Source: Endomicrobiia bacterium (GTDB lineage Bacteria > Elusimicrobiota > Endomicrobiia > DTEH01). Taken from it: 64,000 nt of DNA. Below, one piece after another: positions 53,401-59,400 of this stretch. The number at the start of each line of letters is the position of its first letter. The stretch's first letter is position 1. The stretch spans positions 71,474 through 135,473 of the forward strand of contig JBCNUU010000005.1 in NCBI GenBank assembly GCA_039630545.1, read 5' to 3'. Position numbers: made by a program.

Positions 53401-56400
53401 AAATCTCCGAGTTAAAGATGTCATAACTTACTATAATCTCTGATATTTTTCTTAAAGAAAGAAAATTAAGAATGTCTTCTTTTGTTTTAAAATTTGTAAG
53501 AAAAAATTTTTTGATAGATTTATCTTTTTTTAAAATTTTAACAATTTTTAACTTTTTGTCTTGTGAGCATATAATTCCAACTCTTGGTTTGCCAAATATA
53601 TATTTTGAGTATCTTTTGTAAAAATAATTAATTAAAAAATGCCAGGTAGTCAAAAAAATAAAATTTACAACAACCGTTAGAAATAAAAACACTCTTGAAT
53701 ATTCATAACTTCTATAAAAAAAACTAACCGCAAACAACAGGATTATAAGCACAAAAGAATTTTTAAAATTATTAATAATTTCATCATAAAAATTTAGAAT
53801 CTGATTTTTGTAAAAACCACTGGACACATAACTTATTAAACATACACATAAAAAAAATGGAACAAAATTATAATAAATGTTTAAAGGAGGAATACCTTTT
53901 ATAGGAGGGATAATTTTTGTAAAAATTGGATTATAAAAGCGAATATAATATGTCAAAAAAAATGAACCTGAAGATACAATTAAATCTCCAATTAACTTTG
54001 TTAATATATAGAAATTCCACAAATTCTTTTTTGACATAGGTTTTCCTGTTTTTGTTATGTTAGAGGTCAAGTATTACTTATAAAATTTTTTATTTATGTT
54101 TTCAATATTATACATTTGTTAAATATAATATTTTTGGAGAAGATTGAGCTGGAAAGCATCTTTTATGTGTTCTGGATTACTTCCATCTGTAAATGAAATA
54201 ATATCAAATCTAAATTCTTTAAAGTTTTTGCTATTGAGTTTTAAATACCACATAGCTGACAGAATAATTTTTCTTTGTTTATTTATATTTACAGTTTCTT
54301 GTGGTGTTCCAAAAAAAGAGTTTTTTCTATATCTTACTTCTACAAAAACAAGACAATCATTTTTTTTATCATAGGCAATTATATCTATCTCTCCGTGTTT
54401 TGTTTTGAAATTTTTTTCAAGAATTTTATATTTTAAAGATTTTAAATATTTTATAGCAACTTTTTCATAAAAACTTCCTAAAGATACTTTGTTCATTGCT
54501 TTGTAAATTTATATGCATAATATCTATGTAACTCACAACATCCTATTTCTAATATAGATTTTATATGATCTTTTGTTGGATAACCTTTATTTTTATTAAA
54601 ATTATATTCTGGAACTATATTGTGATATTTATGCATTATAATGTCTCTTATAACTTTAGCTACAATAGAAGCAGCAGCTACTGAGGCACTTTTGAGGTCA
54701 GCTTTTATCAATGCATATTGAGGTATTTTTATATAAGGGTTTCTATATCCATCTACTATTACCAGATCAGGCTTAATCAACAGATTATCTACAGCATTTT
54801 TTATTACTAAATAGTTTGCTTTTTGAAGTCCTATTTTGTTTATTGTTTCTACAGGCAAGATGCTTAAAGATATATCTAAAGCTGATAAAATAATCTTTTT
54901 AAACAAGAGGATTCTTTTTTTTGAAGTAGCAGTTTTTGAATCTTTTAGATTTTCTATAGATGAGTTTCCATTAAGAATTACAGCACACGCAACTATTGGT
55001 CCACTTAAACAACCTCTTCCTGCTTCGTCTACTCCTGCTAATATCTTTATATTAAATTTTTCTTTTAAACTATAGTCAAAACTGAATAATTTATTAGACA
55101 CTTTCTACTTTTGCTTCTTTACCTATTTTTCCCCTTAAATAATATAACTTCGCTTTTCTTACATTACCTTTTTTAACAACTGAGATAGATTCAATACTTG
55201 GAGAATACAAAGGAAAAATTCTTTCTACTCCTACTCCATAAGAAATTTTTCTTAAGGTAAAAGTTGAGTTTATCCCTCTTCCTCTTTTTGCTATGACAAT
55301 CCCTTCAAAAGTTTGTTTTTTTTCAACACCTTCTTCTATAAATTTAAAAGTCACTTTTATAGTATCTCCTACTTTAAATTCAGGAATTTTTTTATTAGGA
55401 TCTATAGAAATCATATCTAAATCTACTTTCATAAGTTTGATACTCCTTTTTCTTCTTTTATTACTTCATTTAATAATTTTTTTTCTAAACTATTAAGCTT
55501 TATATTATCTAAAAGTTCTCTGCGTTTTCTATAAGTGTTTCTTATTGCTTCTTTTAATCTGTAAAGTTGTATTTTTTTGTGGTCTCCAGAAAGCAAAATA
55601 TCTGGAACCTTCATATTCATGTAAGAATAGGGCCTTGTATACTGGGGATAATCTAAAAATTTACTAATAAAACTTTCTTTATAAAGGGATTCCTTTTCTT
55701 TTATTACTCCCTTTACATATCTGCATACAGCATCAATTAAAACTATAGCAGCAGGTTCACCTCCGGTAAGAATATAGTTGCCTATAGAAATTTCATCGTC
55801 TACAAATCTCATTACTCTTTCATCAACTCCTTCATATCTTCCGCACAAAATTATTAACCATTTTTTTTTATAAAGTTCGAATGCTATTTTTTGATTTAAA
55901 ATTTTTCCTTGAGGAGATAGATATATTACATAAGGTTTTGTCTTTTTTGATTCTTTTTTTATTTTTCTTATAGCCCTAACAATTGGTTCAACTTTAAGTA
56001 CCATTCCTGCTCCGCCACCATAGGGTCTGTCATCTACAGTTCTATGTTTATCATATGCAAAATCTCGCAAGTTCCATAAGTTAAGAATAATTTTTTTTTC
56101 CTTTATCCCTTTGGATATTACACCGTATAACTTTATTGTTTCCAACATCTGAGGAAATAATGTTATTACATCTATCCTCATGTATCTTTTATATAACTTT
56201 CTAATGCTCCATCTAAAGAATCTACAAAGATAATCCTGTTTTGAACATCTACTTGTAAAACGACTTCCTTTATAAAAGGAATAATAATTTCCTTGTTTTT
56301 ATAAGACATAACTGAAAGCACATTATAGTTGTCTTTTATTTTTATTATGTCAACTACTCTGCCTATGGTTAAATTCTTCTCTTTTAATATGACTTCAGAA

Positions 56401-59400
56401 TTTACTATGTCTTTTTTAAAGAAAATATATTCAGGCAGGTATTCAAAATTTTTTATAATAAAAGATCCTCTTAATAACAAACTTTCTTGTAAAGAGTTTA
56501 TTTCTTTCAGTTTAAGAACATAAAATTTTTTTTCTTTTTTATATTTATATAAACTAAGATACTCTACTTGATACGGTCCATAAATATTTTGTGCTTTTTC
56601 AAAGAACAAAATATCCTGATTTTTACAGGTATGGTTTGTGATAAAAAATTTTACAATTATTTCTCCTTTTAATCCTTTAGTTCTTAGAACTTTTCCAATA
56701 CAAACTTCCACTTTAAAAATAACTAAAGCTATTTTTCTATTACTTCTATAACTACTCGTTTATTTAATTTAGCTGCAGAACATCCTACAATAGTTCTTAT
56801 TGCTCTTATAATTCTTCCTTGTTTTCCTATCACTTTTCCTCGGTCAGTTTCTGCTACTTTTAGTTCTAATATTACAGATTGTTCACCACCTATTTCTTTT
56901 ACCTCCACTTTATCAGGATAATCTACCAGCGCTTTTACGATTGTAGCAAGAAGTTCTTTCATATTTGTATTTTACCTCCCTTTCACAAAATTCTCTATAG
57001 ACCTTCATTTAGAAGATAATGTGGAAATGATTTCTGCTTTGATTTTCGCATCTTTTTGAACTTTTTTTATCAGATATTCTACTGTGTCAGAAGGTGATGC
57101 TCCACATTTTATCCATTGTTGATATTTTACAGTGTCTATTTCGACTTTCTTTTTTATAGGATCATATACACCAATCACCTCTACAGGTTTTCCTTTTACT
57201 GATTCTTTTCTTTCAATTACGCAAATTCTAAAAATTGGTCTGTTCTTTTTGCCAACTCTTTGAAGCCTAATTCGTAAAGCCATTACTGCCTCCTTTTTAA
57301 AAATAAGTAATTTTATTTTTACAAGTTTAAAAATTAAAAGTCAACATATTTGAAAAAATTTTATAAAAATTAGATAAATCTATTAAAACTTACAATTTCT
57401 TTAATATCTTTACGCATGTCAGATTTTGCATGTTTTCTTATCACATCGTTACTTTTATGTGCAGTATCTGGATAACCCATACATACAAGAAGAGGAACTT
57501 TATACTTATTTGGAATTTTTAAAACTTTTTTTACTCCTTTTTCAGAAAACCATCCTACATAACAAGTTCCCAATCCTAGTTCTGTTGCTTGTAGGACCAA
57601 ATGTTCAGTAGCAATTCCTATGTCTATTAAATAAAATTTTGTATTTCTTACTAGAGAACCAACTTTTGATAAAAATCCAGCTTTATCTGCTATAACCACA
57701 ATAATTACAGGTGCTTGAGAAATAAATTTACTTAATTTATAAATACCAGATGTTGCAGCTTCAGTTAATTTTTGTTTTAATGAAATATCATCAACCACTA
57801 TAAATTTCCAGGGTTGAGCATTACAGGCAGATGGTGCAAGTCGTGCAGCTTCTATACATTTTATAATTTTTTCCTCCTCTACAGGCAAAGGTAAAAATTT
57901 TCTACAACTGTATCTTTGTTTTAGTAACTCCATAAATTCCATATTATTTCTTCTCCCATCTTAATAAATTTTGAACTTTAGATAAACTGCTTCCATCTTT
58001 TATTTCTTTCCTTATTCTATTTTCTTTTTCTAATACATCCATAGCACGATTTGCTGTTTCAATAAGTTTTTCTTTAGGAATTACCACTACTCCATCTTCG
58101 TCAGCTACGACCCAATCGCCAGGAAAAATTTTTGTTCCCGAAATTGTAACTGGTACATTTATTTCACCAAAACCTTTTGGTTCACCTGCCTGTGGTGAAA
58201 TTAATCTGGCAAATGCTGGAAATTTGAGTTTTTTAATTTCAGAAATATCTCTTATTGCTCCCCAAATTATAACTCCTGAAAGCTTTTTTTCTATTGCTGA
58301 ATAAGTTGCAAGTTCTCCCCATACAGCGGGTCCAACTCCTCCTGCATCTATTACAATGACATCACCTTCTTTAGCTAAATCGATCGCTTCTACTGGTTTT
58401 GACCAATCCCCTGGATAAGTTCTTACTGTAATTGCAGGACCTGCCAATTTTGCCTTTTCTGTAATAGGTTTTAGTTCATCTAAACATTTTGCACGATGGA
58501 GTGCATCTGATATGTTAGCAACAGATACTTTATAAAGAATTTTTCTTATCTCATTAATTTCAGAAACCCTCTTATATAAGTTTGTTTTAATTTTGGTTTT
58601 TGTAGCGATAGCTTTTTTTATTTGAATAGTAGCTTTTCTTGCGTCTTGGGATTTTATTATAGCACCTCCTACCACGATTATATCAGCTCCAGCCTCCAGT
58701 GCATCTTTAACATTTTCTGAATTTATTCCACCAGCTATAGAAACAGGCACATTACATATTTTTTTAACTTCTCTTATTATGTCAAAATTTATTTCACCTT
58801 TCATTTGTTGATCTATTGGAATGTGAAGACCAATATAATTTGGTTTAAATTTTAAAATCTCTTTTATTCTTTTGAGTAAATCTTTTACTTCTATCATATC
58901 CACCATAATTTCACATCCATAATTGCTGGCTGCATCTATTGCCTCTTTTATAGTTTCATCGTTTGCAACTCCTAAAATCCCAACAATATGGGCCCCTGCT
59001 TTTGCTGCCATTTCTACTTCTGTTCTTCCTACATCCATAGTTTTCATATCCGCTAAAATTTTGATAGTTGGTGGTAGAAGTTTTTTTATTTCTGTAATTG
59101 CTTTTATTCCTTCTGATTTTATGAGGGGTGTTCCTATTTCAATTATGTCAACTCCTGTATCTTTTATTTCCTGAACAATTTTTGTTGCTCTGTGTAAGTC
59201 AACAAAATCTAAAGCAACCTGCAAAAGTGGAAAAGGAAATTTTGAGTCTGTTTTTTTCATATTTTGATTTTAAAAAAACTTCATACTTTTTATTTGGTTA
59301 CAAATTTCAAAAACTTTTTTTGTAATTTCTTCTGTAGAGTTTCCTAGCCCACACTGTGGAGTTATTATTAAATTTTTAATTAATGCTTCTTTATTGATAG

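Follow-up and report, generated by a model that had tools for sequence, protein, structure and literature searches.

No detectable signal recognition particle in an Endomicrobiia genome or among sampled Elusimicrobiota

The rpsP operon and the usual place of ffh

The window analysed here is a stretch of 64,000 nucleotides from a genome of an Endomicrobiia bacterium (Elusimicrobiota). Its minus strand carries, at positions 55094-57283, an ordinary rpsP-khpA-rimM-trmD-rplS operon followed by rnhB and yraN, and the features of this region are as follows.

54119..54496, minus strand: yraN-like UPF0102 gene (PF02021, 93.1 bits)
54493..55101, minus strand: rnhB (RNase HII), downstream end of the gene string (PF01351, 126.7 bits)
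55094..55432, minus strand: rplS (ribosomal protein L19; PF01245, 141.8 bits)
55429..56181, minus strand: trmD (PF01746, 200.4 bits)
56178..56711, minus strand: rimM (PF01782, 34.4 bits; PF24986, 24.9 bits)
56729..56962, minus strand: khpA (KH-domain RNA-binding protein; PF13083, 77.6 bits)
57005..57283, minus strand: rpsP (ribosomal protein S16), opening the operon that lies behind ffh in many bacteria (PF00886, 64.3 bits)
57284..57369, no strand: 86-base spacer between the nitroreductase gene and rpsP (ORF coordinates)
57370..57942, minus strand: nitroreductase-family gene in the position of E. coli ffh (PF00881, 112.9 bits)
57944..59260, minus strand: OMPdecase/HUMPS-family and RraA-like fusion, 438 aa (PF00215, 129.7 bits; PF03737, 159.1 bits)

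S16, RimM, TrmD and L19 are encoded on one strand in the order seen in E. coli K-12, khpA being inserted between rpsP and rimM. In E. coli K-12, ffh lies immediately 5' of rpsP-rimM-trmD-rplS on the same strand; here, the nitroreductase gene stands directly upstream of rpsP, followed by the OMPdecase-family/RraA-like fusion. A preliminary description of this DNA had placed a nitroreductase gene in the usual ffh position, and both gene order and the PF00881 match bear this out. The 86-base spacer is too short to hold an ffh remnant, and six-frame searches of the contig with PF00448, PF02978 and TIGR00959 gave no match within it. The 438-aa fusion protein is similar in size to Ffh but, with its PF00215 and PF03737 matches, unrelated to it.

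The nitroreductase gene is not a conserved occupant of the ffh position across the phylum. Among 28 other phylum genomes, the upstream neighbour of rpsP is rpe in seven, FolD in four, Mfd in three, GGGtGRT in two and four further genes once each, with a neighbour lacking any family in the remaining eight; SRP54 occupies the position in none of the 28.

Ffh, FtsY and SRP RNA in the source genome

The source genome comprises 1.60 Mb in 82 contigs (57 of them below 2 kb), is 95.49% complete, and has 127 N and 29.4% G+C. With all 35 of 35 candidates scored, the PF00448 model of the NG GTPase domain found no match above its 22.7-bit cut-off, the best (18.3 bits) covering the P-loop only. The sub-threshold P-loop frames, 16 in number, were all assigned to other families. 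The best score with TIGR00959, the Ffh equivalog, was 14.5 bits against a cut-off of 473.2, and PF02978, the model of the methionine-rich M domain through which Ffh contacts signal peptides and SRP RNA, had no match. Similarly, E. coli Ffh as a query in local phmmer and tblastn searches returned just a 16-bit P-loop match. For the RNA, neither RF00169 nor RF01854 gave anything at E<=10 and RF04183 gave no match. The tmRNA of this genome scores 176.9 bits, so its structured RNAs are within reach of Rfam models. The earlier statement that Ffh, FtsY and SRP RNA are missing from this genome is thus upheld by PF00448, TIGR00959, PF02978, RF00169 and RF01854 alike.

Extent of the absence within the phylum

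The phylum was represented by 401 genomes drawn from a larger group, 293 of which are at least 90% complete, and which span 123 genera and 36 families (PF02978 search). This search raised few candidates per genome, all of them scored among the genomes listed, and no M domain above the 27-bit cut-off was found in any of the 401 genomes, the 293 most complete included. The best match, at 18.6 bits, lay in a 163-aa Lys/Glu-rich frame without a Pfam family. In the large P-loop searches with PF00448 and TIGR00064, six to seven of about 10-70 candidates per genome were scored. TIGR00064, the FtsY equivalog, exceeded its 260.7-bit cut-off in 0 of 401 genomes with six candidates scored in each, and PF00448 had strong full-length matches in two of the 401, together with 19 weak matches at 22.2-25.2 bits, of which one was inspected.

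Both strong matches are FlhF. The preliminary description had attributed the SRP GTPase matches of the phylum to FlhF-like genes beside flhA, and this attribution proved correct for both genomes concerned, one of the genes being that at C51:12477-13037 described there. In the phylum search the two genes score 144.9 and 122.1 bits with PF00448. With TIGR03499, the FlhF model (cut-off 174.15 bits), the gene in genome G119 reaches 223 bits and that in genome G319 lies slightly below the cut-off at 168.9 bits. Each is found directly 3' of the FlhA C-terminus and before a MinD/FlhG-like or FliM gene, and E. coli Ffh as a local query recovers FlhF at 70 and 60 bits. The best TIGR00064 scores of the phylum, 109.5 and 77.5 bits, are again these two genes, and the next is 27.2 bits.

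Partial scoring of candidates had been flagged earlier as a weakness, and full scoring in well-assembled genomes leaves the result unchanged. When every candidate was scored with PF00448 in five well-assembled genomes, two of them single-contig, the best frame reached 23.6 bits and was Era. Likewise, the three single-contig genomes had no RF00169 match with all 62-74 candidates scored, and neither Ffh, FtsY nor SRP RNA was detectable in them. A closed 1.64-Mb genome from a different class was blank with the E. coli Ffh local query.

The RNA searches of the phylum used stricter filters, with at most 25-46 candidates scored. At gathering score, RF00169 was found in 0 of 151 genomes, in agreement with the earlier report that the small SRP RNA is missing from near-complete genomes of the phylum. 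The large SRP RNA, previously listed as a gap in the searches, is now covered by RF01854 (0/101), and the Bacteroidales model RF04183 was found in 0 of 71 genomes. Because RF00169 misses the Bacteroides control, which requires a model of its own, an SRP RNA of a lineage-specific type outside RF00169, RF01854 and RF04183 could escape such searches; it would then be without its protein partner.

The protein families were found in 14 of 14 control genomes. Subsamples taken from this set of phylum genomes yielded YidC in 99 of 101 cases, SecY in 100 of 101 and S16 in 61 of 61. A single-copy gene that was truly present could not have been missed by chance in all 293 near-complete genomes. The earlier assertion that the gap is no accident of assembly therefore stands, given three single-contig genomes without SRP and no M domain among the 293 genomes at least 90% complete. 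Its wider form, absence from the whole phylum, is borne out within the 401-genome sample and requires rewording, since these genomes sample a larger group: SRP was not found in those searched. We consider the loss of Ffh, FtsY and SRP RNA very probably real, and, as far as an absence can establish this, it had taken place by the time of the common ancestor shared by the sampled Elusimicrobiota.

The remaining export machinery and its clients

SecY, SecA, YidC, two YidD and trigger factor, listed earlier for the source genome, were all found again on re-checking. Its SecY is collinear with E. coli SecY (420 bits) and retains the C4 and C5 loops, and its SecA is collinear with E. coli SecA (886 bits) and possesses the N-terminal helix and C-terminal zinc finger. 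Trigger factor carries the GFRxGxxP motif, and uL23 is of full length. Across the phylum, 100 of 101 genomes have a primary SecY scoring 341-384 bits, and the divergent form is confined to a second copy in two of the 101.

Oxa1 and the YidC2 of Streptococcus mutans have long C-terminal tails. Elusimicrobiota mostly possess a single YidC; that of the source genome has 495 aa with its PF02096 match extending to residue 488, leaving seven residues behind it, and in 30 genomes the tail after the Pfam domain measures 3-21 residues with a net charge of -1 to +6. Thus neither the source genome nor these 30 contain a long, strongly basic ribosome-binding YidC tail of the Oxa1 or YidC2 type, and a search for a Tim44/Mba1-like domain found none. 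No compensating feature was seen in SecY, SecA, YidC or the ribosomal proteins of the tunnel exit. These proteins are as in SRP-containing bacteria, so the sequence carries no positive sign of a takeover.

The clients appear to be numerous. By a crude hydropathy count of 1317 frames of at least 100 aa, 218 contain at least two hydrophobic segments and 139 at least four. Elusimicrobiota still produce the usual range of polytopic membrane proteins, using an unaltered SecYEG (SecY being the subunit checked), SecA, YidC, YidD and trigger factor.

How targeting may run without SRP

In the likeliest explanation, which we infer and hold tentatively, targeting proceeds through ribosome-bound SecA, YidC and direct docking of ribosomes on SecYEG, aided by slow translation. 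Translating ribosomes would then get to the membrane without a dedicated shuttle: SecA on the ribosome would scan nascent chains and hand them over co-translationally, YidC would bear part of the load, and the cytoplasmic loops of SecY, which are conserved, could offer ribosomes a direct docking site. Slow translation would give targeting more time, as it does in E. coli strains viable after deletion of SRP. The single 16S gene and 45 tRNAs of the closed genome fit weakly with a low translational capacity, and one rRNA operon points to slow translation only indirectly. Published work describes co-translational targeting of RodZ by SecA, as well as scanning of the ribosomal tunnel by SecA (PMC5674894, PMC6692507), and reports that slower translation offsets complete SRP loss in E. 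coli (PMC8299109). Taken together, loss of SRP and its explanation through SecA, YidC and direct docking form the account towards which we lean.

SRP loss is lethal or costly in model bacteria, for which reason a clean loss over 36 sampled families suggests that something took over. The Elusimicrobiota stem may have gained a dedicated, unrecognised factor for targeting, either a protein or an RNA and without sequence relationship to SRP, that made SRP dispensable; that none of the known compensations is visible speaks for such a gain, which we nevertheless think unlikely. A shallow screen of the neighbours of secA, secY, yidC and tig, of Met-rich windows and of three guessed families yielded no candidate. 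The neighbourhoods are canonical (Lnt after secA; rnpA-yidD-yidC-jag-mnmE; the spc operon), tig is followed by frames resembling ClpP, ClpX and Lon in size only, and the top Met-rich proteins common to two classes are PilC, TyrRS, Fe-hydrogenase, a TPR lipoprotein and an M48 peptidase. A YidD-TPR fusion is of full length in just 2 of 101 genomes. Moreover, according to the published work on E. coli, that bacterium survives without SRP through mutations that merely slow translation, so a new factor is not required. It is doubtful that Elusimicrobiota use a co-translational route that is absent from model organisms, or a minor back-up in them, perhaps through an unrecognised factor gained when SRP was lost.

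It is very improbable that SRP is present and has diverged past recognition by Pfam, NCBIfam and Rfam models. The AT-richness of phylum genomes (see the G+C of the source genome) and the failure of RF00169 on one bacterial control, Bacteroides, would favour such divergence, but the SRP GTPase fold is readily detected in the phylum in the form of FlhF, SecY, SecA and YidC score as in other bacteria, the tmRNA is found, every sub-threshold P-loop frame of the source genome belongs to another family, and M-domain matches reach the cut-off in none of the 401 genomes. The view that the absence is only apparent, produced by incomplete assemblies, by binning or by the search pipeline, is close to refuted: the source genome is a fragmented draft that, according to the preliminary description, also lacks rpoB and rpoC, and the large searches scored part of the first-look candidates, but the three single-contig genomes lack the RNA with all candidates scored and have no M domain, two of them were fully scored for PF00448 and the third is blank with the local E. 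coli Ffh query, other single-copy genes are recovered in 98-100% of subsamples as against the M domain in 0 of 293, withheld bases amount to less than 2.2 kb and concern just six genomes, and an independent local BLAST/HMMER search agrees.

Significance

Both ffh and ftsY are used as phylogenetic and completeness marker genes. The literature regards SRP as universal, together with its receptor and RNA, and two of the papers cited here begin from that premise. A natural, ancient and phylum-wide loss alongside an otherwise ordinary Sec/YidC machinery shows that SRP can be dispensed with outside the laboratory; were a new route to exist, even free-living cells with a membrane proteome of full size could replace the universal SRP. 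For Elusimicrobiota, any completeness estimate or marker-gene tree that includes ffh and ftsY will be systematically off. Pure-culture isolates exist in the phylum, among them a free-living Endomicrobium with a complete genome (PMC4505116), making membrane-protein targeting without a shuttle a testable question.

Comparison with earlier observations and known systems

The preliminary description had called the absence partly in print, and so it is: Harris and Goldman (2021, PLoS Comput Biol, PMC7987157) remarked that SRP homologs occur in few Elusimicrobia. Their study deals with this phylum too and, like ours, reports Ffh and FtsY as missing, with SecY normally represented. Their account relies on GenBank protein look-ups, speaks of 'few' or 'some', and leaves SRP RNA outside its coverage, whereas the present analysis rests on 0 of 401 genomes for the M domain and on three RNA models. 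Their supplement lists one Ffh (OGS35541) and one FtsY (OGS33922) that NCBI labels 'Elusimicrobia' (PMC7987157). Under that label, the two entries count against a complete loss. A long-branch SecY was proposed there as compensation (PMC7987157), a proposal not borne out by the ordinary primary SecY and the rarity of the divergent copy. What is new relative to that paper is the extent of the absence, the missing RNA, the closed genomes and the evidence against SecY compensation. The literature searched contained no follow-up to the 2021 remark, and two comparative-genomics papers on Elusimicrobiota in it make no mention of SRP.

In mitochondria, ribosomes are tethered by the long Oxa1 tail and Mba1/mL45, membrane proteins number a handful, and SecY has been lost; S. 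mutans, for its survival without SRP, relies on a second YidC whose C-terminal tail is long and basic. Most eukaryotes have mitochondria from which the bacterial SRP has been lost (PMC8321541); Ffh, FtsY and the RNA disappeared in evolution and, as in Elusimicrobiota, a YidC-family insertase stayed in place. Unlike mitochondria, Elusimicrobiota have no long YidC tail and no Tim44/Mba1-like domain, and keep SecYEG and more than 100 polytopic clients. S. mutans, viable after deletion of ffh, ftsY and the SRP RNA gene (PMC8546722), is likewise a bacterium living without the SRP pathway; however, SRP was deleted there in the laboratory, from a species that otherwise retains it, whereas Elusimicrobiota mostly have one YidC with a short tail. 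The co-translational SecA route of E. coli (PMC5674894, PMC6692507, PMC9192764) serves a subset of proteins beside SRP; the SecA described here has the required parts and the same collinear layout, and we infer that it would carry the whole load here. In the E. coli suppressors of SRP deletion (PMC7844537, PMC8299109), SRP is also fully lost, the Sec machinery is unchanged and slower translation compensates. They are selected laboratory mutants with residual targeting defects, whereas the state of Elusimicrobiota is natural, ancient and lineage-wide.

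Absence of the signal recognition particle

The preliminary description had held that Ffh, FtsY and the SRP RNA are missing from this genome and across Elusimicrobiota, and searches of the own assembly (82 contigs, of which 57 are <2 kb, totalling 1,604,573 bases; 127 N; 29.4% G+C; completeness 95.49%) and of a phylum sample confirm that they are. In a six-frame search of the own genome with the SRP-type GTPase domain, PF00448, nothing exceeded the 22.7-bit cut-off when 35 of 35 candidates were scored, the best of 15 matches at E<=10 reaching 18.3 bits. Similarly, the Ffh model TIGR00959 gave a six-frame top score of 14.5 bits against a cut-off of 473.2, the M domain (PF02978) gave zero matches in six frames, and the small and large bacterial SRP RNA models, RF00169 and RF01854, gave zero matches at E<=10. 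Local phmmer and tblastn searches with E. coli Ffh, a query that scores 70 and 60 bits against the two FlhF genes known from the phylum sample, returned only a 16-bit P-loop match from the own genome, and FlhF from within the phylum found no match there as a query. A hidden SRP GTPase among the 16 sub-threshold frames (15 from the PF00448 search and one from the ffh search) can be dismissed, as all belong to other P-loop families: four PilB/PilT-type ATPases, three ABC ATPases, two ParA-type ATPases, thymidylate kinase, RecA, an AAA_14 protein, ClpB, DnaX, guanylate kinase and HsdR. A tblastn match that opens the 1.1-kb contig C31 resembles, by eye, a DnaC/IstB-type ATPase. A crude motif-plus-fold scan for the SRP helix-8 hairpin, a weak test built on a 9-mer, yielded nothing convincing. 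Rfam models can reach this organism's small RNAs, since tmRNA is detected at 176.9 bits; the sole Rfam matches at gathering score within the window are the following.

44930-45296, minus strand, tmRNA gene (176.9 bits)
43359-43431, minus strand, tRNA gene
10863-10934, minus strand, tRNA gene

The phylum sample comprised 401 genomes including the own one, 293 of them at least 90% complete, from 123 genera and 36 families. The M domain exceeded its cut-off in none of the 401 genomes, with all candidates scored in each result listed, and the single weak match (18.6 bits) is to a 163-aa frame rich in Lys and Glu that has no Pfam family. Matches that reached the low PF00448 cut-off came from 21 of 401 genomes, in 19 as partial matches of 22.2-25.2 bits, of which the one examined (G158, 23.6 bits) is Era and not an SRP GTPase. 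The two full-domain matches among the 401 genomes (144.9 and 122.1 bits) are neither Ffh nor FtsY: both are FlhF, scoring 223 and 168.9 bits with TIGR03499, and both directly follow the C-terminus of FlhA and precede a MinD/FlhG-like or FliM gene, which bears out the earlier assignment of the strong matches to FlhF beside flhA. The FtsY equivalog, TIGR00064, likewise exceeded its cut-off in none of the 401 genomes, its top scores being the same two FlhF genes. Many of its weak matches stem from a frame of about 450-490 aa that recurs across the phylum and that, in the one example checked (about 460 aa; G035, L039:796-2172), is an ATP-cone domain joined to a phosphoribulokinase/uridine-kinase-family domain. 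Because the PF00448 and FtsY phylum searches scored 6-7 candidates per genome, PF00448 was rerun with every candidate scored on five well-assembled genomes, two of them single-contig; the best match was 23.6 bits (Era) and the others were <=17.7. A local search with E. coli Ffh against a third single-contig genome (1,643,562 bases, another class) found nothing at E<=10.

For the RNA, RF00169 was over the cut-off in 0 of 151 genomes (two chance-level matches, 16.8 and 17.9 bits), RF01854 in 0 of 101 and the Bacteroidales model RF04183 in 0 of 71, and RF00169 gave no match at E<=10 when every one of the 62-74 candidates was scored in three single-contig genomes. In 14 of 14 named control genomes the protein families were detected; RF00169 detected 13 of 14, missing Bacteroides, which was found by RF04183. 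Subsamples of the same phylum draw gave YidC in 99 of 101 genomes, SecY in 100 of 101 and S16 in 61 of 61, and trigger factor is present in 10 of 10 genomes of the own family. For the genomes searched, the absence of SRP is real and does not stem from assembly, and the phylum-level interpretation is supported in the wording that none of the 401 sampled genomes yielded SRP. Since all 36 sampled families are without the system, the simplest reading by parsimony is that it was lost once, in their common ancestor or earlier.

The rpsP locus

In E. coli K-12, rpsP-rimM-trmD-rplS is immediately preceded by ffh, which lies on the same strand. The corresponding locus in the window reads as follows.

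55094-57283, minus strand, rpsP, khpA, rimM, trmD and rplS, each with a clear Pfam match
After rplS, minus strand, rnhB and then a UPF0102 gene, both with clear Pfam matches
57370-57942, nitroreductase-family gene, 190 aa, directly upstream of rpsP
57944-59260, minus strand, 438-aa fusion that joins an OMPdecase/HUMPS-family domain (129.7 bits) to an RraA-like aldolase domain (159.1 bits), just upstream of the nitroreductase gene

By its Pfam matches and the E. coli gene order, the locus was correctly described as having a nitroreductase gene in the usual place of ffh. The gene upstream of rpsP varies among 28 other genomes of the phylum, which makes the nitroreductase a local neighbour rather than a replacement conserved in this place: ribulose-phosphate 3-epimerase occurs in seven, FolD in four, Mfd in three, GGGtGRT in two, and IlvD, ThyX, FolE2 and flavin reductase in one each, with no family at E<=1e-8 in 8 of the 28. 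An SRP-type GTPase occupies this position in 0 of the 28. The epimerase neighbours (loci L097, L108, L113, L117, L123, L124 and L125) are spread over six families, and ribulose-phosphate 3-epimerase may be the ancestral neighbour of rpsP in the phylum. The OMPdecase/RraA-like fusion has no reciprocal best hit in G066, a closed single-contig 1.64-Mb genome of another class.

Sec machinery and candidate compensating features

No obvious compensating feature is visible in SecY, SecA, YidC, the tunnel-exit proteins, trigger factor, SecB or YidD. The own SecY aligns end to end with that of E. coli (420 bits, gaps of only 2-3 residues), with conserved C4 and C5 loops, and in 100 of 101 phylum genomes the primary SecY matches the Pfam profile over its full length, with scores of 341-384 bits. 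The own SecA is collinear with E. coli SecA (886 bits), has no insertions relative to it, and keeps the N-terminal helix and C-terminal zinc finger. YidC is single copy in most genomes, and its tail beyond the Pfam domain comprises 3-21 residues with a net charge of -1 to +6 in 30 genomes and 7 residues in the own genome; a ribosome anchor of the Oxa1 or YidC2 type is not present. Extended tunnel-exit proteins can be rejected from the ordinary lengths of uL23 (97 aa), uL29 (68), uL24 (102) and uL22 (125). Trigger factor keeps its ribosome-binding motif, and SecB and a Tim44/Mba1-like domain are absent. The second YidD of the own genome is a 397-aa fusion of a hydrophobic leader, YidD as the N-terminal domain, TPR repeats and a weak TM2 match (G000:C23:49212-50405; L126:2213-3406); it is real, yet only 2 of 101 genomes (the own genome and G010) have it at full length, and G004 carries its parts as two separate genes side by side.

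Several other arrangements were seen in these genes. Three genomes possess, besides a normal YidC, a YidC-type domain (54-76 bits) within an open frame of 823-908 aa.

G052:C11:23721-24284, YidC-type domain in a long frame
G089:C15:48871-49431, YidC-type domain in a long frame
G042:C7:120427-120768, YidC-type domain in a long frame

The jag/khpB gene that follows yidC in the own genome (G000:C82:31946-32416; L062:5947-6417) encodes only 156 aa, with Jag_N as its sole Pfam domain at E<=0.001, no KH or R3H match, and no reciprocal best hit in G066. In the own spc operon (G000:C12, L061 14863-15926), S5 (14863-15420) and L15 (15447-15926) are separated by a 26-base gap with no L30 gene between them, which agrees with PMC7203096, where Elusimicrobia are said to have yielded no convincing L30.

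Relation to the published record

The core fact has been in print since 2021, when Harris and Goldman (PMC7987157) reported Elusimicrobia as the only well-represented phylum with almost no SRP sequences, their yield being one FtsY, one Ffh and one type III secretion protein, while SecY was not under-represented. Given these single published Ffh and FtsY accessions (OGS35541 and OGS33922), some lineage filed under Elusimicrobia may keep SRP. Besides that paper, a literature search with the phylum name and SRP terms returned only a broad review without this point, and the main text of two comparative-genomics papers on the phylum is silent on SRP, Ffh and FtsY. What is new here is the extent of the absence, the absence of the RNA, the closed genomes, the identity of the sole exceptions as FlhF, and evidence against SecY divergence as compensation. 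That last idea was the suggestion in PMC7987157 that long SecY branches might reflect compensation, and it is not supported, since 100 of 101 genomes have an ordinary primary SecY. In 2 of 101 genomes the normal SecY is accompanied by a divergent second copy (G072:C66:14874-15836 and G004:C5:66763-67653; 206 and 57 bits), and these rare paralogues may be the long-branch sequences of that study. The finding remains surprising for the field.

Membrane-protein targeting without SRP

The membrane clients remain: when the 1317 frames of at least 100 aa were screened crudely by hydropathy, 218 had at least two hydrophobic segments and 139 had at least four. SecA, YidC and direct docking of ribosomes on SecY are minor routes in E. 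coli. Because SRP is gone and everything else is unchanged, the most economical reading is that these general routes would carry the membrane-protein load, through ribosome-bound SecA (a route described in PMC5674894 and PMC6692507), YidC, and ribosomes docking directly on SecY. No positive sign of a takeover by SecA or YidC appears in the sequences.

Alternatively, an unrecognised new factor may stand in place of SRP, a possibility for which the screen so far is shallow. Comparison of the own genome with G066 across classes gave 620 reciprocal best hits, 534 after coverage and E-value filters. No conserved unknown neighbour of secA, secY, yidC or tig was seen, the neighbours being canonical (frames after tig judged by size only), and Lnt follows secA in both classes. 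The five top shared matches scanned for a Met-rich, M-domain-like protein are all known proteins: PilC, TyrRS, an Fe-hydrogenase, a TPR lipoprotein and an M48 peptidase.

Targeting without SRP is testable because cultured isolates of the phylum exist (PMC4505116). G066 possesses one 16S rRNA gene (located by three universal primer sites; C1, about 1535218-1536200) and 45 tRNA genes, and the own draft genome has 42 tRNA genes; the G066 counts are compatible with a low translational capacity but prove nothing. In E. coli, survivors of complete SRP loss are reported to carry mutations that slow translation and thereby widen the targeting window (PMC8299109).
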